Positions 7,338 through 22,700 of a DNA stretch of 22,700 nt are shown here, piece by piece. Within the stretch, counting starts at the first letter, position 1; every line of letters starts with the position of its first letter. The notes under the pieces were generated by a model, which saw only the letters and a program-made list of their open reading frames with translations, did not search any database and was not told where the DNA came from. A program made the translations under genes and the position numbers. The stretch is from Promethearchaeota archaeon (GTDB taxonomy: Archaea; Asgardarchaeota; Thorarchaeia; Thorarchaeales; Thorarchaeaceae), in the NCBI GenBank assembly GCA_027031765.1, contig JALVPN010000221.1, forward strand, positions 1 to 22,700, given 5' to 3'.

Positions 7338-8257
7338 CGCTGTACCTCCGTGAACTCTTTGACCGAGGTTTCAAAATACTCTATCCATACGGATTGCATA
7401 GAGCCCACTATGAAGGAGTTGAACGCCGCACTTGCCATTCCCCGGAGAAGTCGGGGACAGTATATCTCTCTGAGCTTGCCAGACAGGTTCTCGGAAACAT
7501 GCCATAGCACTTGCAGTATGAAGGCATGCGTACCAGGTCCCATTGAGAACGTCAAGGCGGCCCACCATGCCCCCAATACCCCGACTACGAAATCGACCGT
7601 GACTCCACATGCTCCATAGGCCACTAGGAGTAGCGTCGACCGCTGACTCCAGGTCACATAGTGACCAGCCATGAGAGCCACTCTTGCAGCAGGTCCCATC
7701 ATGCACATTGTCATGCAGGCGTCTACTGCACCCAGACCAAGCAGCAGTGCGACACTCAACAGGAAGAGGACAGCTGAGGCGATACTCTCAACGGCAGTTG
7801 CCCCTGCCACATGCGCTGCCCAGGACTGTTCCTGTGGACTAGTCATCCGGTCGTCCACCGGCGTGCAAGTCTCACACCCTTCGACTCGAGAGTCACACAG
7901 CAGTTCCACTGAGACGTGCAGAGTAGCAGTGCCCCCTGCTGGAGTCGAGACCGTCAACGACAGGTGAATGCGCGGCCACCACCCTTCCCACCACGCCACA
8001 ACCTCCTCTGGCAACCTCTGGATGTCATCTGGGAGGAATCGGGCAGCTGGCAAGGGCTCGGCCTCTGCATGGCAGCCGTCAACATTCCCATGAGACTCCT
8101 CCGGCCCATCCGGGTCTGGCGCTGCCGGGTCGTGCCGCGTCAGCGCCGCTACCACCTTGATGTCGTGGGTGTGTATCTCCACCAGAGTGTACGAGGAGTA
8201 CCAATGTTTCATGATGACCACAGCATACTTGATGACTTGGGGGCCCCTGTCACTCAC
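7334..8257 (-). CDS. Orphan cassette, variable tip type A (junction module plus hydrophobic C-terminal domain)
   Basis: Begins directly in a degenerate junction module (QVIKYAVV...HDIKVVAALTRHDPAAPDPDGP). GTG overlaps the upstream stop. Paralogue of 19325..20389. Confidence 0.7.
   Translation of the reverse strand: MSDRGPQVIKYAVVIMKHWYSSYTLVEIHTHDIKVVAALTRHDPAAPDPDGPEESHGNVDGCHAEAEPLPAARFLPDDIQRLPEEVVAWWEGWWPRIHLSLTVSTPAGGTATLHVSVELLCDSRVEGCETCTPVDDRMTSPQEQSWAAHVAGATAVESIASAVLFLLSVALLLGLGAVDACMTMCMMGPAARVALMAGHYVTWSQRSTLLLVAYGACGVTVDFVVGVLGAWWAALTFSMGPGTHAFILQVLWHVSENLSGKLREIYCPRLLRGMASAAFNSFIVGSMQSVWIEYFETSVKEFTEVQR
8101..8240. repeat. Junction module copy 1 (degenerate)
   Basis: ccgggtcgtgccgcgtcagcgccgctaccaccttgatgtcgtg core shared with five other sites. 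Confidence 0.85.
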
Positions 8258-8790
8258 GGATGCCGGATATTATTAGTCGGCACTTGAGTGTTCCCAAGCC
8301 CTCCCGTAGGATCTGGGCTCGTACAACACACTCGTAAGAGGGCCATGAGAACTAACGGAAAGACCAACGAATACGTTAACTGCATGTCCTGCACCGTTTC
8401 CGGCAGTTCTTGGGGCCACAGTATTCCAATGACTAGCAAAGGCAGTCCGAAGAATATGGCGGTAGCACCGAGGTTGGCAATCAGACTTGCTCTCACGGTC
8501 CGGACAGTGGCCCCGTGAAGTCGGACGAGGAAAGGAAGAGGCCTCTCAGACTGGTCAGTCCTGGCCATAGCGGACTTTCTCGCATACCTCCTTGTTAGAT
8601 GACTTGCAATTCTAAGTACAATAAGTGGAAGGGAAGATATCATGTAAAGCCAGACCACAATCCATGGACTGATTGTCGTACGGACACCTCCTTTTCTCCT
8701 GCTATTTTGGACCTGAGAGGTAAATCCCTGCCATGACACCAAGTCCAAGCAATAGGAGCAGAGTTCGTGCACACTGCAAGAAAGTGTCAT
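8254..8790 (-). CDS. Partner (putative immunity) membrane protein, family C
   Basis: Three hydrophobic segments (WIVVWLYMISSLPLIVL, LGATAIFFGLPLLVIGILW, YSLVFPLVLMALL), directly after the 610-aa gene. The true start is uncertain and probably lies downstream of 8700 in transcription direction (GTG 8658 or ATG 8643). Confidence 0.65.
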   Translation of the reverse strand: MTLSCSVHELCSYCLDLVSWQGFTSQVQNSRRKGGVRTTISPWIVVWLYMISSLPLIVLRIASHLTRRYARKSAMARTDQSERPLPFLVRLHGATVRTVRASLIANLGATAIFFGLPLLVIGILWPQELPETVQDMQLTYSLVFPLVLMALLRVCCTSPDPTGGLGNTQVPTNNIRHP

Positions 8791-10534
8791 GGTACCCCCA
8801 CTCCTCTATTGTTTCGACCCTATACTTGCGTAGGGGTGTGAAAACTCGGCAGAAAAAAGTATGGGCAGCAAGCGTGTCCCCTCCAAAGACAATACCCCAT
8901 GTTAGTACAAATAACGAAACGACTGCATCACGCCATGCAATCTCTCTGAAAAGGTATCCCTGTGCAATGTTGACTATCAACGCAAATGCGAACCCAGTAT
9001 ATGCTAGCATGGACACCGTAAAAAGAAGTCTGGAATGCGGAATCAGTTGGAATGTGGCGAAAAACTGTGCCATCGTCAATGAAACCGTCACGCATATAGT
9101 GAGATCTCGGATTGCAGCGTGTCTGAGGACTCGCCCTACGGATGACTCGAAGTCCGCATCACTCATGGACTCTAGGAATGGGAAACTAAAGATACAGCTT
9201 TCTGTTGTGAGTGTTCCCAGTAGGTCCACATAGAAGACCATTGAGAATGTGAGCAATCCGATTACGAGGTTGAGAGTGAACTTCAAAGTTGGCCAAGGGC
9301 CTAACCATTCCAATTCGAGCGCATCTCTGGCCAGGTCTTCAAAACTAGCAACAAAACTTTCTGCCTGTGACCACCTACCTGCGCTCTGGGCAGTACCATC
9401 GGCAGTACCATCATACACCACCGGCTCATCCAGGTCCGGCGCTGTCGGGTCGTGCCGCGTCAGGTCCGCCACCACCCTGATGTCGTGGATTCGCATCCCC
9501 ACAAGGTCGGAACTGGAGTACCTGTAGCCCAGTATTGCCACGTACTTGATCACCCGGGAGGCATTGTTACAGTCGCCCAGTGCGAATGGGGCGGCCTGTC
9601 CATCGGTACTGGTAAAGACTGCGCCCTGTGGCGAGCCGTCGTGCTCGCCCCACGAGAACGTGACCGTCTTCTGGAAAAAGGACGTGTAGCTGTAGCCGGA
9701 CCACCTGCGGCAAGGCGACCCGCTGTCCTGTGGGTAGAAGTACGCATAGACGTAGCCCTTCCTGGCGTTGGACCACGAGTCACCAAACACCACCATCACT
9801 ACCCGTCGCATCTCCTCGTCACAGAGCGCGACGTACGTCTTGCCCATCCCGGCCCCGGAGTCCTGGAGCAGGTCGCAGACCACTGTGAACTCGCTGAGCT
9901 GGTAGAGCCTGAAGGGCCGGTCCAGGACGTGTACGTAGCACGGGCCGTGCCACCCCTCCCCGGTGGCTATCTCCGACCACGTCATGTAGCTCTGTCCTGA
10001 CGGTACTGTGAGCTCGCCGTCACCACGGGCACCGAAGGGGAACGACGGGTCGCTGTGGAACCCCTCCATGTCGTTGCACGTGTCGTGGAAGACCGTGGAC
10101 TCGGAGCCCACGTAGCTCACCCGGATGCCGTAGGCCCTCGCAAGGCCCTGAGTGACCCCATTGCGGTAGGCCTGTATGACGACGTACTGGATGGGCCTGT
10201 GACGGTCCACCTGGTCGTAGAGGTAGAGGACCTTCTCGTCAGCACCAGGCACGCCCGCCACCACTCCCTGTAGCGGGTCGTACCGCAGGGCCACCACGCC
10301 CGTGAACCGTCCCGGCACCGCCACCTGACTGCACGCGCTCGTACCGTCTTCCCGGTAGTAGTAGCGTGCGGTCACGTACACGGTTCTCCTGTTGAGGTGC
10401 CGCCCCAACAGCTGAGCTGTTTCGGGGGCACACCGACACACTCTGTCCTCTCTGAGCGTCCCCACAACACTACTGCGCGACACTGACACTGGAATGCTAC
10501 CTCTCCTCTTCTTTTCTCTCCTCTCCTCTCTCAC
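8702..10534 (-). CDS. Apparently full-length effector/surface protein: beta-rich N-terminal domain, junction module, hydrophobic tip type C
   Basis: 610-aa ORF. aa ~50-355 are rich in aromatic and beta-strand residues, DLTRHDP is at ~aa 357-363, and about 4 hydrophobic helices follow, ending TLLLLLGLGVMAGIYLSGPK. It is the only copy with a long intact N-terminus. Confidence 0.8.
   Translation of the reverse strand: MREERREKKRRGSIPVSVSRSSVVGTLREDRVCRCAPETAQLLGRHLNRRTVYVTARYYYREDGTSACSQVAVPGRFTGVVALRYDPLQGVVAGVPGADEKVLYLYDQVDRHRPIQYVVIQAYRNGVTQGLARAYGIRVSYVGSESTVFHDTCNDMEGFHSDPSFPFGARGDGELTVPSGQSYMTWSEIATGEGWHGPCYVHVLDRPFRLYQLSEFTVVCDLLQDSGAGMGKTYVALCDEEMRRVVMVVFGDSWSNARKGYVYAYFYPQDSGSPCRRWSGYSYTSFFQKTVTFSWGEHDGSPQGAVFTSTDGQAAPFALGDCNNASRVIKYVAILGYRYSSSDLVGMRIHDIRVVADLTRHDPTAPDLDEPVVYDGTADGTAQSAGRWSQAESFVASFEDLARDALELEWLGPWPTLKFTLNLVIGLLTFSMVFYVDLLGTLTTESCIFSFPFLESMSDADFESSVGRVLRHAAIRDLTICVTVSLTMAQFFATFQLIPHSRLLFTVSMLAYTGFAFALIVNIAQGYLFREIAWRDAVVSLFVLTWGIVFGGDTLAAHTFFCRVFTPLRKYRVETIEEWGYHDTFLQCARTLLLLLGLGVMAGIYLSGPK
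9421..9577. repeat. Junction module copy 2 (in the full-length gene)
   Basis: Encodes GDCNNASRVIKYVAILGYRYSSSDLVGMRIHDIRVVADLTRHDPTAPDLDEP. Confidence 0.92.
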
Positions 10535-11262
10535 TGTCTGCGTCTGTGTCTGTGTCCATGTCTGTGTTTCATGCAGGCGTCCTCTATCTTTCTCAGGCCC
10601 TCATGCGCGGTCCTGCACCCATGCCGGTGCATGGTACCACGCGACAGACGGGTGGATGAGGGTGCCCAGCCCCTACCCTGCACGGGGCCGGACCCGACTT
10701 TCTCTATCAAGTGCTACTCACATACGCGACAATATAAGGGGCGGGGTCACAGTGCCGTGCCGAACTCTGGCCCGGAGGGCCTGTCTGGCGCCATTCCGGG
10801 GATCATGGGAGAGGGAGAGGACGACGCGCCCACGAGGGTGTCCTGGAAAGGACAAAAATGGCCCTCTCTGCTTAACATCTGGCCACGCTGCTGGTGCGGC
10901 CACGACCACTCCGTCACGTGCTGTCCAGCGCCGGCTCCAGTGCAGGGTGTGCCACGGAGGAGAACCGGCCAGAAGACAGTCCACAACCCGTCCTTCAAGA
11001 GAGAGGGGAGCGACGGAAGAGAGATGAGTGAGGGATAGGACTGGCAACCAGATAGCATGTCTGCCGGAAAGGAGTTCAGCAGACGTTGTGGCCCGTCAAC
11101 TCAAGTCAATTCCGGCCCCGTATTTTGGGACACATCATTATCCGAAATATGCTCAGTCCTACTGTCAGTGCCGTGAAGACCAGTGTTGTCCGTCGTAGTC
11201 CGAGGAAATGGCAGTGGGCCTTTCCCTTGCAGGCCTGACAGCAGGAGGAAAATCTCAGTCCC

Positions 11263-11688
11263 TTACAACCGACCAAGAATGTTCAGTCCAATTATTCTTT
11301 CGAACTGGACAAGGTCATCGAGGTCGGACTTGAGTATGGTGAGCAGTATGGAGTTGTCAAAGTCCATGTAGCTGTGGACCAGGCGGTTCCTGAAGGCCGC
11401 CATCTTGGAAAGCCGCTCCGCAAAGTCCTGTGACAACAGACCATGCTTTGAAAGGACTGTGAACACTTCAGCATAGGAAGTGGGTTTTTCCCAGCCCATT
11501 CTACCTATGATTGCATTCCCGATGTCCAGACAGATCTGGATAGCTTCTATGAGATAGAACTTGGCGGCACCGAGATAGATACGGTTGTTCACCAGTTCGG
11601 CATGCCCTATTGATGCTATTTCTCTCAGGACAGCAATACTAGAGTCAAGTCGAGACAGTCTCTCCCTGATTGAACCAGAGGACATCAA
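11263..11688 (-). CDS. hepT: HEPN (DUF86/HepT-like) RNase toxin
   Basis: RNRLVHSY matches the R-X4-H-X-Y motif. EAIQICLDIGNAII and P-T-S-Y-A-E-V-F are typical of DUF86. Overlaps the MNT gene. Confidence 0.9.
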   Translation of the reverse strand: MMSSGSIRERLSRLDSSIAVLREIASIGHAELVNNRIYLGAAKFYLIEAIQICLDIGNAIIGRMGWEKPTSYAEVFTVLSKHGLLSQDFAERLSKMAAFRNRLVHSYMDFDNSILLTILKSDLDDLVQFERIIGLNILGRL

Positions 11689-12125
11689 GAGGCCTCACCG
11701 TCCACAAGGCGCCTGTGCAGATATGCGTAGTACGTGTCAAGGGCATACTTGAAGTCGAGGTACTCGATAAGCGTCCGGGTCTCAAAGGATGCCCGGATCT
11801 CATCGTCAAGACAATAGATGACGCGCCCGTCCTTGATGACCTGGTACCGGAACTCCACAGGGGCGTGGTCCAGGGACTGGAGGTCCACTTCGACATCAGG
11901 AACAATCCGGGACAGGTCGTAGGTCAGGTCTCTCAGGAGAGATGCGTACTCTGAGTCTGGTGTGCCATCTGGGAGCAGGACCGCAATATCGAGGTCACTG
12001 AGCGGAGTCGTAGCTCTCAAGGCGTAGGAACCATGGAGGTAGGCCAGTACAACGCCTTGGGTCGCCAGTATCTCGGTTATTGCCGGCAGCAATGCCTCCA
12101 GCTCTTCAGGACTCGGTCCAGTCAT
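11685..12125 (-). CDS. mntA: Minimal nucleotidyltransferase (MntA-like) antitoxin
   Basis: YLHGSYA...SDLDIAV catalytic motif, VDLQSL third Asp, 146 aa, directly upstream of the HEPN gene. Confidence 0.9.
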   Translation of the reverse strand: MTGPSPEELEALLPAITEILATQGVVLAYLHGSYALRATTPLSDLDIAVLLPDGTPDSEYASLLRDLTYDLSRIVPDVEVDLQSLDHAPVEFRYQVIKDGRVIYCLDDEIRASFETRTLIEYLDFKYALDTYYAYLHRRLVDGEAS

Positions 12126-12212
12126 CGGTACTTACCTGTTGATTGCGTCTCCTCGGAGTCCATTCTCAAGTATTCACACCGGCCTTACTGTAAAAAACGT
12201 ACTGGATGATGG

Positions 12213-12470
12213 CACCACAACTCCCTGTCTCGACAGGGGAGGAGACCATAGTCCCGGACGACTGCACACTACTACCTCCACCCTGTGGGTGGGAGTAGAC
12301 GTTGGGCCAGCCCTTCCCGTGCGGAGGACATCATCCGCCCCTCGCCCCTCGCCGTGGCCGCAACAGTGACCGCGCACAGGGCCCATGGCATGCGGCACAT
12401 ATCAACGCCCGTGCTCAGCGGGACTGCGGGGGCCACCCCTGGTCCTTCATGACTCAGAGTGGTCAGTCCG
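12213..12470 (-). pseudogene. Truncated cassette homology arm (no junction module or tip follows)
   Basis: Matches 22250-22490 and 14945-15040. Encodes SSAR/(frameshift)/KGWPNVYSHPQGGGSSVQSSGTM, homologous to SNARKGYVYAYFYPQDSG of the 610-aa gene. Homology ends at ~12213. Confidence 0.75.
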
Positions 12471-12666
12471 TGGTGGTCAAGCGCCGTCCTCGCACATGTC
12501 CATCTCGTCCAGTCCCGTGTCATCCTCCATCTCCTCCTCTATCTCCTCATCTGCCGGATATGGTCTGCCGGCGCCCCAGTACCTGTAGCGAGGGTCATAC
12601 ATAGGGTAACAGCACGTCATTACTACTACCCAGAGGACGAAGATGGGGTATCTTCCCATCTCATAC
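12283..12666. repeat. ~385-bp direct repeat, near-identical to 22318..22700
   Basis: Base-by-base comparison shows only scattered substitutions and small indels. Covers the 3' end of partner E plus the downstream arm. Confidence 0.93.
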
Positions 12667-12998
12667 ATGACACCTGACAGGAAAGCGGGGGGCAACAGGA
12701 GCCACCAGAACAAGGACGTGGGCAATACAGCGGAAGCATATGCCATGAGCATGTATGTGACCAGGTCTACTGGTCGTGTCACGTGTTCTGCGTACCATGC
12801 ACCACGTCTCGTGGGGTCAAGTCCCGCCCCTCTCATCTTCAGCACAAGCTGCCACTCACCGTCACGTCTGTAGCGACTGAACAAGATATAGATGGTCCCA
12901 CCAACCAGTACTCCAGTGCACCATGCAATCAAACTGAGGACACCTTCCTGCACCTGACAGCCCTCCGGCCGATAGTCCGGCCCGTAGTCACGTCCCAT
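12477..12998 (-). CDS. Partner (putative immunity) membrane protein, family E, with acidic tail
   Basis: About 4 hydrophobic segments and a C-terminal DEEIEEEMEDDTGLDEMD. ATG overlaps the stop of 12988..13203. Paralogue at 22511..22700. Confidence 0.72.
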   Translation of the reverse strand: MGRDYGPDYRPEGCQVQEGVLSLIAWCTGVLVGGTIYILFSRYRRDGEWQLVLKMRGAGLDPTRRGAWYAEHVTRPVDLVTYMLMAYASAVLPTSLFWWLLLPPAFLSGVMYEMGRYPIFVLWVVVMTCCYPMYDPRYRYWGAGRPYPADEEIEEEMEDDTGLDEMDMCEDGA

Positions 12999-13203
12999 CA
13001 GACCACTGATAAATCCACCCTACTAAGAAGCCAACTGCAAAGACGACTATAGTGAGCAAGACGACAAGATCCGCCAACATGAGTCCAAAATGTATCCGCC
13101 CCTCAAGGCCTCTCTTCTGCCACTGTTGCCCATGCTGATACCGCTCTCTGAAACACCTGGAGTACTCCGCAGCACCCCTACTCTTTTCACCCAAACGATA
13201 CAT
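12988..13203 (-). pseudogene. Probable remnant C-terminal end of a tip (type E)
   Basis: Ends in one long hydrophobic helix (FGLMLADLVVLLTIVVFAVGFLVGWIY), as tips B, C and D do, and overlaps the partner E start. No junction module upstream. Confidence 0.45.
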
Positions 13204-13239
13204 ACTCTACCTGAGCCGAGAGAAACAGGGAAAGGCAGA

Positions 13240-13890
13240 CTACTGTCTGCTGGACTCTTCTTTGAGCTTGTGTCGTTCCCAGAAGAACCTGACAATAGCA
13301 TGTGGTGAGTATCCAAAAGTGAGGCCCAGCAGCGGGATAATGAAAACACGTGGGTCTTGGAGTACAAACCAAATGGCCAGGAGCAAGGGCACATAGATCA
13401 CGACTATCGAAGAGAGCAAGAATGCTACAGTCCATTCTGTCTTGAAGAGGACCCTTCCGACAGGCGTTTCTTCAAACTCTTCTGAAAGTGTTTTTTCCCC
13501 TGACGTTGTGCGTCGCTCCCTCATCTTTTGCGAATGTCCCACAAGAGGGACGCCTATCAGCAGGGAATACAAGAACCATCCTATAGAAGATGAGAGGCCG
13601 ACCATCATTGCAGCTGGGAAGAGGGGTGACGACATCCCCAAGTCAGGCGGAAAGGGCTGTAGTAGGATTTTGACTGCAAGCCAGACCATCAGTATGGAAG
13701 GCACAATCATTACAAGGAATAAGACAGCAAGAAACACAAGAAATGAGAAGTCCCTCGTGTCCTTCATTCTCTCGCCGGGGTCTCTCATACCCAGTGACAT
13801 GACAGTAATCCCTTCCTTCCGGCTATTGTCCACATCCTTGTCAGGTTCAGACCCTGCTTGTACTTGGATGTCATACAAGGTCCATTCCAT
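13240..13890 (-). CDS. Partner (putative immunity) membrane protein, family D
   Basis: Four TM segments (FLVFLAVLFLVMIVPSILMVWLAV, MMVGLSSSIGWFLYSLLIGV, VAFLLSSIVVIYVPLLLAIWFV, FIIPLLGLTFG). Overlaps the tip D stop. Confidence 0.78.
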   Translation of the reverse strand: MEWTLYDIQVQAGSEPDKDVDNSRKEGITVMSLGMRDPGERMKDTRDFSFLVFLAVLFLVMIVPSILMVWLAVKILLQPFPPDLGMSSPLFPAAMMVGLSSSIGWFLYSLLIGVPLVGHSQKMRERRTTSGEKTLSEEFEETPVGRVLFKTEWTVAFLLSSIVVIYVPLLLAIWFVLQDPRVFIIPLLGLTFGYSPHAIVRFFWERHKLKEESSRQ

Positions 13891-14860
13891 TCAGGTAACA
13901 CCAGCTCAATACTCCAATTGCAGAGGCGAAGAGTCCTACAGCAGCAACCATCACAATCCCTGCTACAACAACATTTGAGACCACTTGTCTTGCTCTGTTG
14001 ATTTCCTCATCAGAGTGGAGTCTTGTTTCTATGTACTCAAAGTAGTCCATCTCGACAGGCGAGTTCAACCTGACTGCCTCAGCCAACGTGACAATACTGT
14101 CACACAGACACAGAAAGCCCATGAAAATCAACACAACAGCCGCAGTAAGCGGTCTGAGCACTCCATTGATGGTGTCCGTAACAACTCTTGCAGCTCCCAG
14201 GAAGATAGCTGTTGCGAAAGAAATGGCGAGTACCACGAAAAGAGCGCTGCCCAGACCAGTTTCTGCAGAGAGTGCAGCTGCAGCCATTGCTCGCTCCAGC
14301 AACTCCGCAACGAGCCAGGGAATTCCACCCGGTCCCAACAGATACTCAAAAGCATCATCGACAGCAGCACGGAAGACCGTGAGCGGGTCTTGTGTTCCCG
14401 CTGCATATCTCAGGAGAAGTGGCTGGAACAGGTCGATCATGCCATCCGGATGGACCTGGAAGCTTCCAAGAATATCAATGGAAAAATGTAGGCACATGTT
14501 CACCTCAGGGACTGGTGAGAACGTAATAAGAGAATGTAGTGTCGGCCACCACCCCGTCCAATACACCGTAAGATACTCTTGGACCGTTTCGAAGAGACTC
14601 TCCGCAAGGGTCTTGGCCTGGGCCGTCTGTCCGGTAACTGTACCATCATCTCCGACCGGCTCGTCCGGGTCTGGTGCTGTTGGGTCGTGCCGCGTCAGGT
14701 CCGCCACCACCCTGATGTCGTGAACCCGCATCCCCATAAGGTCGACACCGGAGTACCTGTAGGCCAAGACTGCCACGTACTTGATCACCCGGGAGGCATT
14801 GTCGCACCCGCCTATGAGACTTGGCGTCCCTGACCCACCAGTCCTCGCATACACCGCTCC
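13871..14860 (-). CDS. Orphan cassette, variable tip type D (5'-frameshifted)
   Basis: Homologous part of track ORF 13871..15277 starts at GAVYARTGGSGTPSLIGGCDNASRVIKYV...DLTRHDP, followed by YWTGWWPTL...DILG and hydrophobic helices. Confidence 0.72.
   Translation of the reverse strand, partial: GAVYARTGGSGTPSLIGGCDNASRVIKYVAVLAYRYSGVDLMGMRVHDIRVVADLTRHDPTAPDPDEPVGDDGTVTGQTAQAKTLAESLFETVQEYLTVYWTGWWPTLHSLITFSPVPEVNMCLHFSIDILGSFQVHPDGMIDLFQPLLLRYAAGTQDPLTVFRAAVDDAFEYLLGPGGIPWLVAELLERAMAAAALSAETGLGSALFVVLAISFATAIFLGAARVVTDTINGVLRPLTAAVVLIFMGFLCLCDSIVTLAEAVRLNSPVEMDYFEYIETRLHSDEEINRARQVVSNVVVAGIVMVAAVGLFASAIGVLSWCYLNGMDLV
14656..14810. repeat. Junction module copy 3
   Basis: Encodes CDNASRVIKYVAVLAYRYSGVDLMGMRVHDIRVVADLTRHDPTAPDPDEP. 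Confidence 0.92.
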
Positions 14861-14891
14861 CCGACCCACCGGTGCCCGCATACACCGCTCC
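14830..14891. repeat. 31-bp tandem duplication (frameshifting)
   Basis: ctgacccaccagtcctcgcatacaccgctcc / ccgacccaccggtgcccgcatacaccgctcc. Confidence 0.88.
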
Positions 14892-15198
14892 CTGACCACC
14901 CCGGTACGACTCCCACCAAGACTCCCCAGTTTCGACAGACCAAGACTCCCCAGTCTCGACAGAGGAGGAGGCCATGATCCCTGACGACTGCACACCACTA
15001 CCTCCACCCTGTGGGTAGGGGCAGACGTTGGGCCAGCCCCTGGTGGTACCACCTCACACACCGTCCAGATTCGCCCCATGCACCGCCCCAGTGGACACGC
15101 ATCACGGTTTCCCCCTACTTGTCGTCTGGGCCCAGCTGTGTCCTGTCCGCCACCAATGTCACTATGTCCGCCACCTTGTCCTATGGGGGGATTGTGGA
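14861..15198 (-). pseudogene. Frameshifted homology arm of cassette D
   Basis: Encodes in shifted frames VTLVADRTQ..., GWPNVCPYPQGGGSGVQSSGIM...ESWWESYRGGQGAVY, homologous to aa ~215-320 of the 610-aa gene. Confidence 0.7.
14915..14962. repeat. 24-bp tandem duplication (SVETGESW x2)
   Basis: accaagactccccagtttcgacag / accaagactccccagtctcgacag. Confidence 0.92.
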
Positions 15199-15858
15199 CT
15201 AATCCCCATTCTGTAGACGTGCCGCATACCATTCTGCGTACCATTCTCTGTAGGCCCTCCCAAATGCCTCTCCGCACTCATCGTCCCGCGCCAGCAGTTG
15301 TCTGAATGCTCTGGCAAAGCTGTTTCGCGTCCTCCCCTGACGCATCTTCTCGTACTTCGTGAGCAGACGGTGCACTAGTTCCTTGAATGCAGTCCTATCA
15401 GGTGTTGACTGACGAAATGCCGTTTCTACTGCCCCTACTATTTCATCTGTTGGAAGTTGTTCCCATGCCTCTTCCCATGCCCGCTCCCTGTCTGTCGTTT
15501 CTCTTCTCCCGAACCGTCTTAACGCACCTTTGTATGTGTCATAGAAGAAAGTTGGTGCAGTCAGGAAGATTGTCAATAGAACTCCAATCAGTGTAGTCTC
15601 GGCATTCTCGTAAGAGCCTGAGATGTAGGGCCACAAGCACAAGAATGTAATGAAGGCCACTGCCACAACATCGAACATACCATAGGTCGTCATTGCTCGC
15701 CTGAAAGTCCCACAGAAGAACCGTCCCACCCTCCGGAGTACGATGGGGCCACATTCATGCTCGGAACAAATGTCGGATACCCAGATGAAAACGGCCAACA
15801 GGAAGACCGTCCCGAACACTCCAAAGACTTGCAAGAGAAGGAGCTGTTGTTCAGTCAT
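15199..15858 (-). CDS. Partner (putative immunity) membrane protein, family B
   Basis: GAGGTG ribosome-binding site, 12 bp after the tip B stop. Three TM segments plus a helical C-terminal domain. Paralogue of 20537..21241. Confidence 0.8.
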   Translation of the reverse strand: MTEQQLLLLQVFGVFGTVFLLAVFIWVSDICSEHECGPIVLRRVGRFFCGTFRRAMTTYGMFDVVAVAFITFLCLWPYISGSYENAETTLIGVLLTIFLTAPTFFYDTYKGALRRFGRRETTDRERAWEEAWEQLPTDEIVGAVETAFRQSTPDRTAFKELVHRLLTKYEKMRQGRTRNSFARAFRQLLARDDECGEAFGRAYREWYAEWYAARLQNGD

Positions 15859-15870
15859 CAGATCCCCACC

Positions 15871-16842
15871 TCAAGAGTTCTCAAGACCCATTGTCAAGAA
15901 CCTGGAGATGCAATAGACACAAGTGACCAGGACTGCTACCTTTACCAGTGCTATTGCGGCATACCAAAGGCCTATTCTAAGGGGACCAGAAGGCATTGCA
16001 TCGAGTGGCCGTAGCAGTTCCCATAGACCAGACATGAACCATGCCATTCGGAGAGCATAGGCTAGCCCCGGGAAAAGCAGGCCTAACAATGTGGCTAGTG
16101 CTGTAGCTGCACCGAAGGGATGGACTATTCCCTCATCGACAACATAGAACAGATACGCCAAGTAAGATACAAATATCACAGTCCAAGCAGCAAGCATCGC
16201 TAGTAGGGTTCCCAAATCCATGCCAATCGTCAGAGGAGACGCCACAGCTTCTATTGCCCTCAACCCTAGTGATAGAGCATAGCTCAATGCTACAGGGATG
16301 ACAAAAAGGGAAATGAAATCAGTGTATTGTGTTTCCATTTCTGTAGCTGCACTCCGTAGCTCTTGTTCCGAATGTTCCCGTTCAACCGGAGTAACTATAC
16401 TCAGTGAATGTACTTGAAAGTCACCCAAGATATCAGTCGACACAAGGAATGTCAGAGTCCCCTCCCCATCAAATGTCCCAGTGAACTGCAAGAATAGACG
16501 GGGCCAGCAGTTGACCAGCTCCCAGGAGACATCAATTGACTGGAGGAATGGACTCAGGACTGCACCCACACTCTCTACGAGGTCGTCCTGATGCTCAACC
16601 GCCCCCATTCCTGTCCCATCAGATACCACCGGCTCCTCCGGGTCTGGCGCATCCGGGTCGTGCCGTGTCAGGTCTGCCACCACCCTGGTGTCGTGTATGC
16701 CCATCCCCATAAGGTCGACACCGGAGTACCTGTAGCCAAAAATCGCCACGTATTTGACCACGCGCGAGGCATTGTCGCACTTGCCTATCAGACCGGGCGT
16801 TCCAGACCCATCAGTGCCCGCATTCACCGCTCCCCGACCACC
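15871..16842 (-). CDS. Orphan cassette, variable tip type B (5'-frameshifted)
   Basis: Homologous part of track ORF 15871..17088: GGRGAVNAGTDGSGTPGLIGKCDNASRVV...DLTRHDP...NCWPRL...DILGDFQV plus hydrophobic helices. Paralogue of 21238..22302. Confidence 0.72.
   Translation of the reverse strand, partial: GGRGAVNAGTDGSGTPGLIGKCDNASRVVKYVAIFGYRYSGVDLMGMGIHDTRVVADLTRHDPDAPDPEEPVVSDGTGMGAVEHQDDLVESVGAVLSPFLQSIDVSWELVNCWPRLFLQFTGTFDGEGTLTFLVSTDILGDFQVHSLSIVTPVEREHSEQELRSAATEMETQYTDFISLFVIPVALSYALSLGLRAIEAVASPLTIGMDLGTLLAMLAAWTVIFVSYLAYLFYVVDEGIVHPFGAATALATLLGLLFPGLAYALRMAWFMSGLWELLRPLDAMPSGPLRIGLWYAAIALVKVAVLVTCVYCISRFLTMGLENS
16629..16785. repeat. Junction module copy 4
   Basis: Encodes KCDNASRVVKYVAIFGYRYSGVDLMGMGIHDTRVVADLTRHDPDAPDPEEP. 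Confidence 0.92.
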
Positions 16843-16965
16843 CTGAGAGGGCCCACCACAACTCCCCGGCCTTCTTGGACGGGGTGCGGACATGTCCGGG
16901 ACCCTAGTAGCCTGGAGGACCTGTCCTGTGGACAGAGGTATGCGTTGGACCAGCCCTTGGTGAGA
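16843..16965 (-). pseudogene. Frameshifted homology arm of cassette B
   Basis: Alternative frames encode KGWSNAYLCPQDRSSR and GELWW, matching the arm consensus. Confidence 0.6.
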
Positions 16966-17105
16966 CCGACCCCGCACACCACCCCGGAGGAGGGGCATCA
17001 CAGTTTCCTCCTGCCTATCAACTAGGCCTGCGCGTGTCCTATCCGTCATATTGGCGTCCTCATATACCCACTGGACCACGAGTGGCATTGCGATGCCAAC
17101 GATGA

Positions 17106-17576
17106 CTATTCTGATCCCAGTCCGGACTCCTCGTCTGCTCCCTCCTCGTCCTCCTCATCCTCCTCATCCTCCTCGTCCTCCTCGTCCTCCTCATCCTCCT
17201 CGTCCTCCTCCTCATCCATTGGCTCCTCCGTCACCATTATGGTCAACAGAATGGCATTCAGAAAGCCCCCCCAAGAAAAAGTCAGAAAGTCGTCAATGGA
17301 AGGATGAGGGGGTCCAAACAAGAAGTCTACGAGCTCGGATGGCGCAAGGAGATATCCTGCAAGGAGTATACACAGAAAAGGGGCTTCGAGTGCAATGATA
17401 TTGTACATGAACTCTGTAATCCGCTTCTCTGATGCTTTCAGATACAAGATGGCAATCACTGGACAGGCCTCTTCAGCTCCTCTGAGATGTCGGATGCCAT
17501 AGACACTCCCCACCCCTAGAACAATCAGTATCAAGACGCCTGCAACTAGGCCTAGCAAGAACCAATCGACATACAT
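17106..17576 (-). CDS. Orphan partner-like membrane protein with poly-acidic tail
   Basis: ATG at 17576 with GGAGG upstream (MYVDWFLLGLVAGVLILIVLG). About 3 TM segments and a C-terminal (EED)n tract. Confidence 0.75.
   Translation of the reverse strand: MYVDWFLLGLVAGVLILIVLGVGSVYGIRHLRGAEEACPVIAILYLKASEKRITEFMYNIIALEAPFLCILLAGYLLAPSELVDFLFGPPHPSIDDFLTFSWGGFLNAILLTIMVTEEPMDEEEDEEDEEDEEDEEDEEDEEDEEGADEESGLGSE
17142..17217. repeat. 9-bp tandem array encoding (EED)n
   Basis: (tcctc[ag]tcc)n, about 8 units. Confidence 0.92.
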
Positions 17577-17807
17577 AGTCTGTTCCTCCGCAGTGACATG
17601 TAGACAAAGACTGATTTGAATGCCAGCACTGTCCTCAGTCCCCTCCGGAGTAGACAAGAGATGCCAGTAGGACAGTATACGCGAGCAAGACTCATTGATG
17701 CTCCTGCTGTCCCGTCATTCATCACCGGCTGGTGACAATGAAGACCAAGGCATCGTCTCTGGAGCTCTGGAGTGATACTTCAGACATGCAGTGTTAACAA
17801 TCCGTTG

Positions 17808-18287
17808 TTAGTCCAGTCCTTCATTGCGGAACCAGAATTTGTCAACGACAAGAAGTACCAGGAAGATTCCCCCAAGAATGATGGTTAGTGTCCAGAGGGG
17901 GAGAAGGCCTTGGAGTACTCTGTTTGAGAGAGACTGGGGTCGATGAAAAGGAATGGGCCACAGCATTACGATACCGTTAAAGGCAATTATGAGCAGCTCC
18001 AGTACTCCCCGCCACCAGCGTGGCCTGGACTCCAAGAGAGCAACGTCCTCTGTTACCAGTCCTTCAAGGCCGAACAGGACTTCAATAAGGGATGTCCCGA
18101 GATACTTGTCGCAGAACCAGAGAGATAGAAAAAACGTGACAAGAGCAGTAACGAGCCAGATGAGAAACTTATGCCAGGGAGATAGAAACAACGTCGATAG
18201 AAACAGCGTCACAAGAGAGACGACGACCCAAATGACAAACAACTGGTATAGATGCGGTCCTCGGACTGTTCTAGTCATCACTGTCAC
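17808..18287 (-). CDS. Orphan partner-like 4-TM membrane protein
   Basis: Four hydrophobic segments, GAGGTG upstream, similar size and topology to partners C, D and E. No intact cognate tip. Confidence 0.75.
   Translation of the reverse strand: MTVMTRTVRGPHLYQLFVIWVVVSLVTLFLSTLFLSPWHKFLIWLVTALVTFFLSLWFCDKYLGTSLIEVLFGLEGLVTEDVALLESRPRWWRGVLELLIIAFNGIVMLWPIPFHRPQSLSNRVLQGLLPLWTLTIILGGIFLVLLVVDKFWFRNEGLD
18181..18210. repeat. 15-bp tandem duplication (TLFLS x2)
   Basis: gatagaaacaacgtc / gatagaaacagcgtc. Confidence 0.85.
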
Positions 18288-18299
18288 CTCTTTCAGTCC

Positions 18300-18632
18300 T
18301 CATACCACCCAACCTGGAGCGTGAAAAGGTGAATCCGCAGACTGCATGGCAGTGATCTGTCCCACTTCCCAGGCCACCGCCCGTAGCCACATAGTAGCGG
18401 GAACGGTCATCATCCACCCTGCAGCCCTCATTGCCACCCCTTGCCTCGTGTTGGCCCAAAGACACATCCCAGTGCTTACCGCCACTGCATAGACCGGGAA
18501 CACGGGATTTCCAAGGAGCGACACCAACAGAACCTCCAACTCGTTGTAGTCGGGTCGGTTCTTTGTCTTTTTTGGCAGCACCGGATGACTTGGTAGGGCC
18601 ATCCGGTACGGTTGACAGTCCGTCAAGACCAA
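18300..18632 (-). pseudogene. Possible degenerate tip remnant upstream of orphan partner 17808..18287
   Basis: Hydrophobic stretch LEVLLVSLLGNPVFPVYAVAVSTGMCLW...AAGWMMTVPATMWLRAVAW in the position where a tip is expected. No junction module. An overlapping frame (18271..18750) competes. Confidence 0.3.
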
Positions 18633-18746
18633 GAATGAACAGGTGCACCAACAAGGGGGCGGACAATACCACTGGCCCCGTCCTAGGCGACCGGGGCCAC
18701 ACCAGCAGTTGTCGCTGCAACGTGAGAAACGGTCTTCTGTGCCCCA

Positions 18747-19325
18747 TCACTCTGTCACGGGCCCTGGCACCACCGGGCCCGAATACTTTGCTTGGAGTTC
18801 CTGCACGACCGCCCTTGCCTGAACCCCCAACTCGTCCTCCCGGTCTATCAACGACTGTAATACCTCCTCTGCGATGACACTGTGCCTGTGGGCGGCCAGG
18901 AACACACTCTCAAGACAGTCCGTGAGGAGCTCCGTGTCCACTCCGCGGCCCTCCTCATACGCGGCAACTATCGGCTGCACAACATGTCTGGGAAAGCAGT
19001 CCTTGTACAGCTCTCCTATATAGACAGCCCCAATATTCAGCACCACCAGAGCGACAGCTCCGAGGAGGACATCCCACCACAGAGGAGTCCCCTGAAACAT
19101 GGGGTCATCACTGAGACTGTCGAGAAAATGCCCGATGAAGAAGCCCAGGTTCGCGGGCAGGGCAACAAGGGTGAAATAGGAGCGGAGGTGACTACCACAC
19201 AGGACTCGCCGCAGGCGACCAGCATGTCTGGTCGTGTACTCATCACCCCAGAAGACAGTGGTGATTGAACAGACCCACGCTAGTGCCATTACAGCTGCTA
19301 CCACAGCCAAGCGAAAAGAGGTCAT
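18747..19325 (-). CDS. Partner membrane protein, family A (allele A')
   Basis: ATG at 19325 in a TAATG overlap with the tip A' stop. Paralogue of 6684..7337. Confidence 0.78.
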   Translation of the reverse strand: MTSFRLAVVAAVMALAWVCSITTVFWGDEYTTRHAGRLRRVLCGSHLRSYFTLVALPANLGFFIGHFLDSLSDDPMFQGTPLWWDVLLGAVALVVLNIGAVYIGELYKDCFPRHVVQPIVAAYEEGRGVDTELLTDCLESVFLAAHRHSVIAEEVLQSLIDREDELGVQARAVVQELQAKYSGPVVPGPVTE

Positions 19326-20389
19326 TACTGTACCTCCATGAACTCTCTGACTGAGATCTCGTAAAACTTTGTCCATACGAACCACATAGATGCGACTATG
19401 AAGAAGTTGAACGCCGCAGCGACTATTCCCCAGAGAAGTCGGAAACGGTACGTTTCTCTGAGCTTACCAAACAAGTCCTCGGAAACATGCCACAAGAGTG
19501 GTACTATGAGGGCATACCCGACAAGCCCCGTTGGGTATGACAAGGCCATGCCCAACCACAGTCCCAGCAGTCCGACTACGAAATCGGCTGTGACCGCGCC
19601 TGCTCCATAGGCCGCTAGGAGTAGCGTAATCCACCGACTCCAAATCGCATAGTAACCAAGCATAAGGGCCACTTTTGCAGCAGGTTCTAGGCACGCCGCC
19701 ATCATGCAGGTGTCTACTACACCCAGACCAATTAGCAATGCGACACTCGACCACGCGATGGCAGTTGAAACAGTGTTCTCAACGGCAGTTGCCTCTGCCA
19801 CATGCACTGCCCAGGACTGCTCCTGTGCGTCAGTCATCCGGTCGTCCACCGGCGTGTCAATCTCACACCCTTCGACTCGAAAGTCACACAGCAGGTCGAC
19901 CGAGACGTGCAGAGTAGCCGTGCCACCTGCTGGAGTCGAGACCGTCAACGACAGGTGAATGCGGGGCCACCACCCTTCCCACCATGCCACAACCTGCTCC
20001 GGCAACCCCTGGATGTCATCCAGGAGGGACTGGACAGCTGGCGAGGGCTCGACCTCTGCATAGCACCCGTCAACAGTCCCATCGGACTCCTCTGGCTCCT
20101 CCGGGTCTGGCGCATCCGGGTCGTGCCGCGTCAGATCCGCCACCACCTTGATGTCGTGTATCCGCATCCCCACAAGGTCGAAACCAGAGTGCCTGTAACC
20201 CGAGACCGCCACGTACTTGGCCACACGCGGGGCATTGTCGCACTCGCCTATCGGACCAGGCGTCGCAGGCCCAGTGCTCACATTCACCGCTCCATCACCA
20301 CCCACCGGACAGTCCCCACCACAACGCCCCAGTCTTCCTGGACAGGGTGCACGAGTACCCTGGGTCCCAGTGGCCTGGAGGACTGTCAT
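19325..20389 (-). CDS. Orphan cassette, variable tip type A (allele A')
   Basis: IGECDNAPRVAKYV...DLTRHDPDAPDPEEP...WWEGWWPRIHLSLTV. In-frame homology starts ~20300 and upstream homology is in another frame. Confidence 0.72.
   Translation of the reverse strand: MTVLQATGTQGTRAPCPGRLGRCGGDCPVGGDGAVNVSTGPATPGPIGECDNAPRVAKYVAVSGYRHSGFDLVGMRIHDIKVVADLTRHDPDAPDPEEPEESDGTVDGCYAEVEPSPAVQSLLDDIQGLPEQVVAWWEGWWPRIHLSLTVSTPAGGTATLHVSVDLLCDFRVEGCEIDTPVDDRMTDAQEQSWAVHVAEATAVENTVSTAIAWSSVALLIGLGVVDTCMMAACLEPAAKVALMLGYYAIWSRWITLLLAAYGAGAVTADFVVGLLGLWLGMALSYPTGLVGYALIVPLLWHVSEDLFGKLRETYRFRLLWGIVAAAFNFFIVASMWFVWTKFYEISVREFMEVQ
20092..20248. repeat. Junction module copy 5
   Basis: Encodes ECDNAPRVAKYVAVSGYRHSGFDLVGMRIHDIKVVADLTRHDPDAPDPEEP. 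Confidence 0.92.
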
Positions 20390-20536
20390 GTAGAGAGGAG
20401 TAGACGTTGGACTGGCGTCTCATGCCGCCGGCCCACGCAACGCCCTGTCGACAGGCATCACGGTCGCTGTTGCTCGTCGTCCAAGCCCGGCTGTGTCATG
20501 TCCGCCACCAATGTACACTGTGTCCGCCACCCTGTC
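20390..20536 (-). pseudogene. Frameshifted homology arm of cassette A'
   Basis: A shifted frame reads RQSNVYSSLHDSPPGHWDPGYSCTLSRKTGALWWG (running into 20310), versus YAYFYPQDSGSPCRRWSGYSYTSFFQKTVTFSWG in the 610-aa gene. The TLVADMTQ segment is shared with 15100-15200. Confidence 0.68.
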
Positions 20537-21241
20537 CTATGGGGAGGCCATGGACTGGTCCCCGTCCTGTAGATATGTAGCATACCATTCTCTGTAGGCC
20601 CTCCTGAATGCCTCCCCGCACTCATCGTCCCGGGCCAGCAGCTGTCTGAATGCTCTGGCAAAGATGTTTCGCGTCCCCCCCTGACGCATCTTCTCGTACT
20701 CTGTGAGCAGACGGTGCACCAGTTCCTTGAATGCAGTCCTGTCAGGTGTTGACTTACGAAAGGCCGTCTCTACTGCCCCTACTACTGCATCTACTGGGAC
20801 CTGCTCCCACGCCTGTTCCAGGGCCCGCTCCCTGTCTGTCATCTCTCTTCTCCCGAACCGCCTTGAGAGCTCTCTGTATCTGCCGTAGACAGAGAAAATG
20901 AGAAAGAACAGTGGTAGAAGAATAAAAATCCAAATCACGGACAGAAGAAACAGGGATAGGCCATCCATCGGGCCTGCTGGCACTGACAATAGTGCTGACA
21001 GAAGTGGCACTGACAATAGTGCTGACAGAAGGAATGCTACCATAACATCAAACATGACATAGGTCGTCATTGCCCGTTTGAAAGTCCCACACAGGAAACG
21101 TCCCACCCTTCGCAGTACCATGGGGCCACATTCATGCTCGGAACAACAGTCGGATACCATGATAAACAAGCCGAACAACAGGAGTATTGCGGGCGCCCAG
21201 ATAATGAGGACTATCGGGAGGGGCGGTTGTTCGGTCATCAT
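20537..21241 (-). CDS. Partner membrane protein, family B (allele B')
   Basis: ATGA overlap with the tip B' stop. Paralogue of 15199..15858 (CSEHECGP, STPDRTAFKELVHRLLT, ARAFRQLLARDDECGEAF). Confidence 0.8.
   Translation of the reverse strand: MMTEQPPLPIVLIIWAPAILLLFGLFIMVSDCCSEHECGPMVLRRVGRFLCGTFKRAMTTYVMFDVMVAFLLSALLSVPLLSALLSVPAGPMDGLSLFLLSVIWIFILLPLFFLIFSVYGRYRELSRRFGRREMTDRERALEQAWEQVPVDAVVGAVETAFRKSTPDRTAFKELVHRLLTEYEKMRQGGTRNIFARAFRQLLARDDECGEAFRRAYREWYATYLQDGDQSMASP
20978..21031. repeat. Perfect 27-bp tandem duplication (LLSALLSVP x2)
   Basis: tggcactgacaatagtgctgacagaag x2. Confidence 0.95.
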
Positions 21242-22302
21242 GTTTCCACCTCAGAAGTCCAGTTCCTGAGACCCATCTCCAAGAACTTGACAATGTAATA
21301 GATACAGGTGACCAGGACCGCTACCTTTACCAGTACGACTGTGGCAGACCAGAGGCCTATCTTGCGGGAGCCAGAGGGCAGCCCTAGGTCGAAAGGTCGT
21401 CGTGTTCTCCATATACCAGACATGCACCAGGCCCTGCCAAGGACCAAGCGCATGGATCCGTCCCCAAGAAACGGTATCAAGAATGTGGTCAATGCTCCGG
21501 CGGCAGCAAGAGGACTGGTCACCCCCTCATCTACAGTATGGACTAGATACACCAAGTATGACACGAATGCCACAGTCCAAGCAGCAAGCATCACTAGCAG
21601 GACTCCCAGACTTGTGTCAATATTCAAAGGAGATGCCACAGCTTCTATTGCCTTCCATCCCAGTCCCACAGTAAGGGCAAGTGCCGTAGGGACAGCGTAT
21701 TCTGAAATGAGCTCGTCGTATTGTGTTTTCATTTCTGCCACTACATTCTGTAGCTCCTGCTCTGAGAGTCCCTGCTCAACCGAAGTAGCTATACTCAGTG
21801 AATGTATTTGAAAGTCACCCAAGATATCAGTTGAAACGAGTAGTGTGAGAGTCCCCTCCCCATCAAATGTCCCAGTGAACTGCAAGAATAGACGGGGCCA
21901 GAAGTTGACCAGCTCCCAGAAGACATCAATTGGCTGGAGGAATGGACTCAGGACTGCACCCACACTCTCTACGAGGTCGTCCTGATGCTCAACCGCCCCC
22001 ATTCCTGTCCCATCAGATACCACCGGCTCATCCGGGTCTGGCGCATCCGGGTCGTGCCGCGTCAGGTCCGCCACCACACTGGTGTCGTGTATGCGCATCC
22101 CCACCAGCTCGGGACTGGAGTACCTGTAGCCCAGGACTGCCACGTACTCGACCACCGGCAGGGACTTGTTGCACTCCGCTATCAGACATGCACTCTCCTG
22201 TCCGTCAATGCTCGGATACACCGTCCCGTGGCCACCCCGAAACGGATCCCACCACAACTCCCTTGTTTCGACAGAGGAAGTCATAGTCCCCGATGACAGC
22301 AC
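21238..22302 (-). CDS. Orphan cassette, variable tip type B (allele B')
   Basis: The frame is homologous to the 610-aa gene from KGWPNVYSYPQ (22350) through G-T-V-Y-P-S-I-D-G-Q and the junction module. In-frame stop at 22366-22368. Confidence 0.72.
   Translation of the reverse strand: MLSSGTMTSSVETRELWWDPFRGGHGTVYPSIDGQESACLIAECNKSLPVVEYVAVLGYRYSSPELVGMRIHDTSVVADLTRHDPDAPDPDEPVVSDGTGMGAVEHQDDLVESVGAVLSPFLQPIDVFWELVNFWPRLFLQFTGTFDGEGTLTLLVSTDILGDFQIHSLSIATSVEQGLSEQELQNVVAEMKTQYDELISEYAVPTALALTVGLGWKAIEAVASPLNIDTSLGVLLVMLAAWTVAFVSYLVYLVHTVDEGVTSPLAAAGALTTFLIPFLGDGSMRLVLGRAWCMSGIWRTRRPFDLGLPSGSRKIGLWSATVVLVKVAVLVTCIYYIVKFLEMGLRNWTSEVET
22023..22178. repeat. Junction module copy 6
   Basis: Encodes ECNKSLPVVEYVAVLGYRYSSPELVGMRIHDTSVVADLTRHDPDAPDPDEP. 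Confidence 0.92.
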
Positions 22303-22490
22303 ACCACTGCCTCCATTCTGTGGGTAGGAGTAGACGTTGGGCCAGCCCTTCCCGTGCGGAGGACATCATCCGTCCCTCGCCCCTCACCGTGGCCGCAACA
22401 GTGACCGCGCACAGGGCCCAGAGCATGCGTGACACATCAATGCCCGTGCTCAGCGGGACTGCGGGGGCCACCCCGGCCCTTCATGACTCA
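22303..22490 (-). pseudogene. Frameshifted homology arm of cassette B'
   Basis: tcc tcc gca cgg g aag ggc tgg: one extra G separates SSAR from KGWPNVYSYPQ (compare SNARKGYVYAYFYPQ). Confidence 0.7.
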
Positions 22491-22510
22491 TAGTGGTCAG
22501 TCCGTGGTGG

Positions 22511-22700
22511 TCAAGCGCCGTCCTCGCACATGTCCATCTCGTCCAGTCCCGTGTCATCCTCCATCTCCTCCTCTATCTCCTCATCTGCCGGATATGGTCT
22601 GCCGGCGCCCCAGTACTTGTAGCGGGGGTCATACATAGGGTAGCAGCACGTCATTACTACTACCGAGAGGACGAAGATGGGGTATCTTCCCATCTCATAC
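22511..22700 (-). CDS. Partner membrane protein, family E (allele E'), 5'-partial
   Basis: Near-identical to the C-terminus of 12477..12998. The frame runs off the right edge. Confidence 0.75.
   Translation of the reverse strand, partial: YEMGRYPIFVLSVVVMTCCYPMYDPRYKYWGAGRPYPADEEIEEEMEDDTGLDEMDMCEDGA

Follow-up and report, generated by a model that had tools for sequence, protein, structure and literature searches.

What role is played by a protein-coding module that recurs six times within a single 22.7-kb contig of a Thorarchaeota metagenome-assembled genome (JALVPN010000221.1; the whole contig was analysed and is called the window here)? A preliminary description of this DNA had regarded the module, which ends in DLTRHDPxAPDPxEP, as the boundary between a constant and a variable part of the encoded proteins, as a recombination handle, and possibly as a cleavage site that releases the variable tip. 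We put at about 0.7 the probability that the module acts as a 3'-anchored homology arm at a locus for cassette switching, which belongs to a Thorarchaeota-specific family of surface proteins; short units of arm, tail and partner gene (orphan cassettes) would there exchange their tails with a full-length gene.

All six copies of the module were found where they had been described, on the minus strand, and are conserved in both DNA and protein. They occupy positions 9404-9580 (copy 1, within the 610-aa open reading frame (ORF) P0001), 8084-8260 (copy 2), 14639-14815 (copy 3), 16612-16788 (copy 4), 20075-20251 (copy 5) and 22006-22182 (copy 6), and the Thr codon of their TRHDP motif, from which nucleotide positions around the junction are counted below, starts at 9460, 8140, 14695, 16668, 20131 and 22062, respectively. 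Repeat analysis of the window recovered six copies of a 127-nt unit (70-79% identity) and five copies of a 229-nt unit (74-83% identity). The 29-nt core encoding VVADLTRHDP, with up to 3 mismatches, matched six times (8127, 9447, 14682, 16655, 20118 and 22049), as compared with 0 matches in 100 shuffles. Six ORFs, of 610, 307, 468, 405, 354 and 354 aa (P0001-P0006), contain the module, and the junction motif aligns in all six proteins: the alignment centres on V-V-A-D-L-T-R-H-D-P-x-A-P-D-P-x-E-P-x-x-x-D-G-T, in which L-T-R-H-D-P and A-P-D, together with a P and a G further along, do not vary. The module had been given a length of ~160 bp; the repeated piece measures ~180 bp, and cassettes 3 and 6 keep homology for ~110 codons upstream, partly frameshifted (the upstream arm of cassette 3 at 14862-15041 is frameshifted, and the arm of copy 6 extends to ~22350). 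Copy 2 is the most decayed, with ~50 arm codons left.

Is the module the edge of the constant region? Cassettes with unrelated tails share 75-100% of their DNA sequence from about -120 to +40 nt, and identity drops to 25-55% at +41 to +56 nt, just past D-G-T. Beyond the junction only the cassette pairs 2/5 (88%) and 4/6 (89%) stay similar. The same sharp edge was seen in two further Thorarchaeota loci: from -270 to -45 nt, the main gene of L014 or L015 and the orphans beside it have 80-100% identity, and similarity ends at the junction. These results bear out the module as the constant/variable boundary. The accompanying claim, that the sequences diverge shortly after EPxxxDG, needed amending: the abrupt loss of identity just past D-G-T was confirmed, but the tails share motifs and are not unrelated sequences, with W-x-G-x-W-P lying ~35 residues and D-L-L-G ~65 residues past the junction in all copies of the window.

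Column statistics were compiled over 158 representatives with the junction. At the H-D-P columns (150-158 representatives), His occurs in 53%, Asp in 49%, Asn in 21% and one of P, A or L in 17% at the Asp position, and Pro in 97%. The best-conserved linker residues are D-G-T (92%, 97% and 85%; T or S in 92%) and Pro363. Approximately 25 positions past D-G-T hold almost no information, after which W-x-G-x-W-P reaches 96-99% and D-L-L-G is conserved as well. The length of the linker varies; it is deleted in the full-length protein P0012 and 12 residues longer in P0045. Synonymous sites were somewhat more conserved at the H-D-I-R-V-V-A-D-L-T-R-H-D-P core (1.00 and 0.83) than at its flanks (0.69-0.81); with 6-13 codons per bin we considered this too weak to count as a DNA signal. 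In a separate observation, the Met of M-R-I-H-D is the exact start of 16 representatives (among those that match from their first 3 residues), by far the commonest start, either because gene callers pick the first conserved ATG or because orphans are translated from it as short proteins made of linker and tail.

Where the junction lies in the protein was examined with an AlphaFold2 model of P0001 (39 aligned relatives; mean predicted local distance difference test score, pLDDT, 78). Residues 173-356 form a beta-sandwich with pLDDT >90, whose last strand spans 346-356; HDP follows at 361-363 and residues 373-385 are disordered, so that HDP, whose position relative to a domain boundary had been in question, falls at the end of the sandwich domain in the model. 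Foldseek matched the sandwich to the calreticulin lectin domain (E 3e-8), to GH16 enzymes and to a carbohydrate-binding module of a phage Dit; E values ranged from 3e-8 to 1e-4 and TM-scores by target from 0.5 to 0.58, placing the constant domain that carries the module within the concanavalin-A-like lectin/glucanase fold. According to the model, the module encodes the four C-terminal strands of such a concanavalin-A-like domain and, after them, a flexible proline-rich linker ending in D-G-T. None of the six window proteins matched a Pfam family at E up to 1, and the full-length proteins, scanned at E up to 0.1, matched only the Glce beta-sandwich domain (in P0045 and P0030) and gave weak sub-threshold matches, none of them RHS/YD.

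Full-length relatives (1057-2092 aa) consist of a hydrophobic export segment, a domain with invariant His and Cys residues, several beta-sandwiches, the junction and a tail. The export segment, predicted by hydrophobicity only, is present at the N-terminus of all seven Met-starting full-length relatives with the His-Gly-Gly domain (7/7) and is followed in each by A-A-N-A-G-P; the 5' end of the P0045 gene is cut. The N-terminal domain carries an invariant His in S-H-G-G and, 35 residues later, an invariant Cys in A-A-C in nine full-length proteins (P0012, residues 100-145; P0045, residues 47-90). We take this His-Gly ... Ala-Cys pattern to resemble clan CD peptidases such as caspase, legumain and gingipain. 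The domain of the full-length proteins had no Pfam match and no PDB match by sequence or profile, and an atlas search gave a weak lead to a CHAT domain (rank 50, score 0.88).

The median tail length is 245 aa, and BLAST sorts the tails into ~25 clusters, all of which show W-x-G-x-W-P, DLLG and hydrophobic helices, so that by these shared features all tails are a single, diverged membrane-domain family of ~245 aa. In the P0001 model the tail opens with a helix (381-405), continues as a four-stranded sheet (406-450), the part of the tail that carries DLLG, and closes with five long helices; a model of the tail by itself was confident (pLDDT 88; predicted template modelling score, pTM, 0.77). Foldseek against the PDB gave a best E of 0.03 (claudin, CorA, TRPML), which is not significant; TM-scores against the ESM Atlas were at most 0.36, with no significant match; and a wide VIA-align search returned only designed or generic helical bundles (Z up to 11.6), identifying no relative. 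Hydropathy profiles contain 2-5 membrane-like segments per tail and 1-4 per downstream partner.

Each cassette of the window is followed, on the minus strand, by a gene for a partner protein matching the type of its tail. Cassette 1 (P0001, 8702-10534) is long and 5'-truncated; it encodes two lectin-like domains and, beyond the module, a membrane tail of 235 aa and type D, and is followed by partner D (8254-8685, likely start GTG at 8685). The type-A cassettes 2 (P0002, 7334-8257) and 5 (P0005, 19325-20335) precede the small membrane protein A1 (6684-7337) and its 71% identical counterpart A2 (18747-19385), and the type-B cassettes 4 (P0004, 15871-16851) and 6 (P0006, 21238-22350) precede partners B1 (15199-15858) and B2 (20537-21241), which are 61% identical. 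Cassette 3 (P0003, 13871-15041) has a tail of type C and is followed by partner C (13240-13890). Tail types A, B and E are each duplicated along with their partner in the genome of the window. Outside it, three other assemblies have type-D tails (37-40% identical to that of P0001), and the gene behind each of them is homologous to partner D (31-40% identity; E 1e-17 to 1e-23). Tail and downstream partner travel together, within the genome of the window and in 3/4 of the relatives elsewhere. A complex prediction for the type-D tail and partner D scored 0.00, run without controls, and is evidence neither for nor against their binding.

Several small membrane proteins of the window have features of their own. 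A 9-nt tandem array (17103-17237) encodes a long E-E-D run at the C-terminus of one of them (17106-17657, minus strand), and partner E, described below, likewise has an acidic C-terminal tail. Between cassettes 5 and 4 the membrane-protein ORFs 17106-17657 and 17808-18287 have no cassette of their own, nor does a 159-aa ORF with one hydrophobic segment (18271-18750) that overlaps the latter; the ORFs in this interval may be stand-alone partners.

Did tails and arms reach their present combinations by recombination? Cassette 4 is 96-100% identical to cassette 6 from approximately -30 nt on, and upstream of that point cassettes 3 and 5 are its closer matches. By maximum chi-square analysis with permutation p values, its breakpoints lie at -42/-31 (p = 0.0005) and -72 (p = 0.0015) and that of cassette 6 at -33 (p = 0.001), all inside the module. 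Arm and tail histories were compared in 20 cassettes from seven genomes: modules resemble each other more closely inside a genome than across genomes (median identity 71% vs 60%, p = 5e-6, for cassette pairs that are not independent), tail identity is equal within and between genomes (30% vs 30%), and module and tail identity are uncorrelated (Spearman -0.006). In P0001 the GC content at third codon positions (GC3) falls from 84% in the constant part and 78% in the module to 48% in the tail; nearby housekeeping genes have 77-83%. The arms of the main gene and the orphans in L014 and L015, 80-100% identical over 150-300 nt, end at the junction. Exchange between the two gene sizes is also indicated by the tails: 12/16 full-length proteins share their tail cluster with proteins of orphan size, and 9/16 have an orphan-size relative at 48-63% identity. 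Breakpoints inside the module, uncoupled arm and tail histories, the GC3 step and the recurrence of such arms among Thorarchaeota loci support the proposal that the module serves as a recombination handle.

The orphan arms evolve under constraint, with a ratio of nonsynonymous to synonymous substitution rates (dN/dS) of ~0.34, though the rest of the domain is missing; an orphan arm cannot fold, because most of its domain is lacking. As read from the sequences, this ratio fits periodic residence in, or conversion from, an expressed gene.

A full-length gene was found on another contig. The only gene of full-length type in the genome of the window, P0045 (1283 aa, contig C137), has its 5' end cut by the contig end; P0001, itself 5'-truncated, matches its residues 496-607 and 778-1098. 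Two further module copies of this genome are on contig C42, in addition to the C137 copy. At its other side C137 ends (L011, 1-252) with the first ~84 codons of the partner E gene, and the right end of the window (22463-22700) holds the last ~60 codons of another partner E copy, which probably continues from C137; a gap of ~72 nt would link the two. Inside the array a second partner E gene (12477-12998) is homologous to the C137-end gene with 93% DNA identity over 458 nt, including the tail end; together with the last 83 residues of a type-E tail (12991-13239) it forms a relic (12477-13239) whose DNA matches the end of the full-length gene (3' side) and the start of its partner at 93% identity. 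Since C137 ends in the start of a partner E gene and the window, read along its minus strand, begins with the end of one, the assembly probably broke at this near-identical repeat, and the full-length gene probably lies directly upstream of the array. The likely order is then full-length gene, partner E, cassettes 6, 5, 4 and 3, the relic of tail E and partner E, an arm relic (12223-12313, minus strand) representing a seventh module fragment, an inserted HepT/MNT pair, and cassettes 1 and 2. L014, L015 and several other genomes show this layout too: short cassettes in the orientation of a full-length gene come after it, and a small gene lies downstream of each.

The surroundings of the array were recorded as well. 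The minus strand carries every gene of interest in the window, and the left flank encodes an XPD-type helicase and RadA; named relatives of the window proteins were all from 'Candidatus Thorarchaeota'. The HepT/MNT toxin-antitoxin pair (HEPN ribonuclease and nucleotidyltransferase; 11263-12125, minus strand) stands within the array, right after the arm relic, which is cut off just upstream of it. HEPN/MNT and PIN/VapB pairs are interspersed alike in L013, a homologous array from another Thorarchaeota assembly (11544-12709 and 16167-18719), and one of these pairs comes directly after a cassette cut at the module. The cassette on C42 (L012, 3116-3706 and 2561-3064) has an arm 84% identical and a tail apparently split by a stop or frameshift into ORFs of 196 and 167 aa; after it comes a membrane protein of 202 aa whose own tail is acidic. 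A CT-rich stretch of low complexity (10503-10567), adjoining the 610-aa ORF on its upstream side, reached a summed contig depth of 420 and 123 in vent metagenomes, as compared with ~10 elsewhere, and is probably a simple repeat common to other organisms.

We propose that the locus could operate as follows. The full-length gene would encode an export signal, the His/Cys domain, lectin-like sandwiches, the junction and a ~245-aa tail, with a matched small membrane protein encoded downstream, and silent units of arm, tail and partner would follow it in the same orientation. Tail and partner would be swapped at once when the arms of the expressed gene and of a silent unit undergo homologous recombination or gene conversion, analogous to what has been proposed for the orphan cassettes of Rhs and CdiA. 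Switching may occur at present; the tail may act as a membrane-damaging effector or as an identity determinant, which the partner would neutralise or recognise. By analogy, the locus may work like a polymorphic toxin/immunity locus with orphan cassettes, and a single family of membrane tails is equally compatible with a role in allorecognition.

Several results weigh against this proposal. The tails all belong to one domain family, unlike the assorted folds of classical polymorphic toxins. Arms within the window are only 70-85% identical, with exact common runs of 17-49 nt, a modest likeness if homologous recombination is to be efficient, and the mosaics may date from long ago. The upstream signal of cassette 5 against cassette 2 may partly reflect decay of cassette 2 rather than exchange, and the within- and between-genome comparison rests on non-independent pairs. 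The pairing of tails and partners also has an exception: the type-D tail of P0079 (L021), which is 68% identical to that of P0015, is followed not by partner D but by a partner-C-like gene (1171-1710) that begins 120 nt further; partner D and the cassette after it may have been lost here by deletion. Switching was not observed directly. The one DNA run that contains the locus yields short contigs breaking at modules, and among the runs listed no RNA run contained it. Contigs of this DNA run, which probably represents the source sample, each reach at most 1.8 kb in the window, and several end at or near module cores (9470, 14711 and 22060). Two contig joints, 9820 to 20076 (side 30) and 22277 to 14978, were not counted as recombinants: they were placed at 90% identity and may stem from other paralogues or organisms.

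Could the module instead be conserved for what it does in the protein, or for no function of its own? Conservation through recent tandem duplication and a constrained protein domain would be in keeping with the large segmental duplications of the window (6642-8202 matching 18705-20193, and 15118-16839 matching 20473-22233) and with the place of the module in a well-folded domain of the full-length proteins. However, the arm is common to cassettes whose tails are unrelated, it keeps its dN/dS of ~0.34 in orphans in which it is unable to fold, its history disagrees with that of the tail, GC3 shifts by ~30 points at the junction, and the layout of arm and sharp boundary recurs in independent genomes; we regard this explanation as unlikely. 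The suggestion that the acidic, proline-rich linker is a self-cleavage or labile Asp-Pro site, cut between Asp and Pro in H-D-P or P-D-P to release the tip, draws on the heat and acid lability of Asp-Pro bonds and on the origin of the sample, a hydrothermal vent metagenome. It also accords with the P0001 model, in which HDP belongs to a disordered linker just where the chain leaves a folded domain, and with the presence of H-D-P in all eight copies of the window's genome and of a second D-P in 5/6 window copies. Across the family, however, the scissile pair is not kept (Asp 49%, Asn 21%, P/A/L 17%, after a His at 53%; only the Pro, at 97%, is conserved), the linker is absent from P0012 and extended by 12 residues in P0045, and the P0001 model has no catalytic pocket around HDP. 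Moreover, a tip with several hydrophobic helices that follows an exported ectodomain would be expected to insert into the producer's own membrane, which makes its release topologically awkward; release of the ectodomain, or action inside the membrane, would be more natural. We consider this part of the preliminary description improbable. Autoproteolysis of the GPS/GAIN or SEA type (between Leu and Thr of H-L-T, or Gly and Ser) was rejected: the Thr of D-L-T is T or S in only ~1/3 of the representatives.

If any processing site exists, the bond between Asp and Gly of D-G-T would be the better conserved candidate than HDP. A protease site there, cut by the protein's own clan CD-like N-terminal domain, would agree with the near-invariance of D (92%), G (97%) and T or S (92%), with the preference of Asp-specific clan CD enzymes for small residues after the cut, with the invariant His (S-H-G-G) and Cys (A-A-C) of that domain in nine full-length proteins, and with the weak CHAT lead. 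Yet the domain has no Pfam or PDB sequence match, its likeness to clan CD is a tentative lead, and D-G-T is equally plausible as a structural cap or glycosylation site, so that we give this cut only a slim chance. It enters a broader, similarly speculative scheme of recognition or antagonism specific to Asgard archaea, in which the lectins would bind a neighbour, the caspase-like N-terminal domain would cut D-G-T after its Asp, and the allele-like tail would meet a matching or non-matching partner, making a self/non-self system with specificity read in the membrane and reprogrammed by cassette switching at the arm; we hold this scheme to be a long shot. Weighed against all of these, the homology arm of a cassette-switching locus remains the reading we prefer.

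How far does the family extend? A profile of the module and the start of the tail yielded 247 clusters at 50% identity, of which 161 representatives carry the junction, 114 of them of orphan size (250-450 aa) and 17 of at least 800 aa. Among 301 sampled genomes of the phylum, the family is present in 27/76 of the window's own family and in 0 of ~224 from 29 other Asgard families, suggesting a Thorarchaeota-specific family of surface proteins. We found no paper linking Thorarchaeota with polymorphic toxins; Makarova et al. 2019 was outside the search and may list the family. Among prokaryotes, Asgard archaea are the closest known relatives of eukaryotes, yet very little is known of their competition with, or recognition of, one another, and the locus offers a concrete, family-specific candidate with a defined junction, a new membrane-domain family with cognate partners and sequence evidence for tail exchange at a single place. 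Metagenomes can be searched for such loci, and the loci typed, by means of the junction motif and the W-x-G-x-W-P signature.

Which known system does the locus resemble? It shares with polymorphic toxin systems (Zhang et al. 2012, as cited in PMC6393860) a predicted export signal, a sharp constant/variable junction, a covarying downstream gene and downstream orphan cassettes, and it departs from them in that its C-terminal domains are not drawn from diverse unrelated toxin folds. As in Rhs and CdiA loci, a large exported protein with a conserved junction motif and a variable C-terminus is followed by a cognate small gene and by co-oriented silent cassettes, each retaining a stretch of the constant region. 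Orphan displacement is known in Salmonella Rhs, and E. coli rhs elements classically combine a GC-rich core with tips of lower GC content, akin to the GC-rich constant part and lower-GC tail seen here. Unlike Rhs, however, the Thorarchaeota proteins have no YD repeats and no DPxGL motif, the junction motif being a different one, and unlike CdiA they have no haemagglutinin/FHA repeats and no VENN (Pfam scans of the window and of full-length proteins). Archaea are, to our knowledge, without an outer membrane, a point that bears on CdiB as a mark of CdiA systems. The constant part made of concanavalin-A-like lectin domains, the one ~245-aa tail family and the single-membrane Asgard host further separate the locus from Rhs and CdiA, and we conclude that it is not a member of Rhs, CdiA or MafB.

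Two bacterial systems offer a parallel for the membrane pair. Pore-forming colicins and ionophore-type CdiA tips combine a helical effector with an integral-membrane immunity protein, their specificity lying inside the membrane, and the hydrophobic helical tail, a putative effector, with its small multi-helix membrane partner would be comparable; no similarity to them in fold or sequence was found (Foldseek best E 0.03; VIA-align Z up to 11.6). Proteus IdsD/IdsE is a self-recognition pair of a variable membrane protein and a matching variable partner. The Thorarchaeota locus likewise has one conserved fold, allele-like variation and a matched membrane pair, but shows no homology to IdsD/IdsE, and the window contains no type VI secretion genes.

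Within archaea, a comparable layout has been described for VARTIG of the Thermococcales, a large exported protein whose C-terminus is hypervariable through recombination, with shorter paralogues that align to the C-terminus and downstream genes that mostly encode membrane proteins, an arrangement like that of polymorphic toxins (PMC8416519). Its variable part is an extracellular Ig domain in arCOG07710-type proteins, and no sharp junction motif was described; according to the same paper VARTIG has no counterpart beyond Thermococcales, and Asgard archaea are not mentioned in it (PMC8416519). The Thorarchaeota locus differs from VARTIG in its membrane-embedded variable part, its lectin-like constant domains and its sharp junction. 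The two have in common a recombining variable C-terminus, shorter paralogues and downstream membrane genes, and among the systems compared VARTIG is the closest archaeal analogue.

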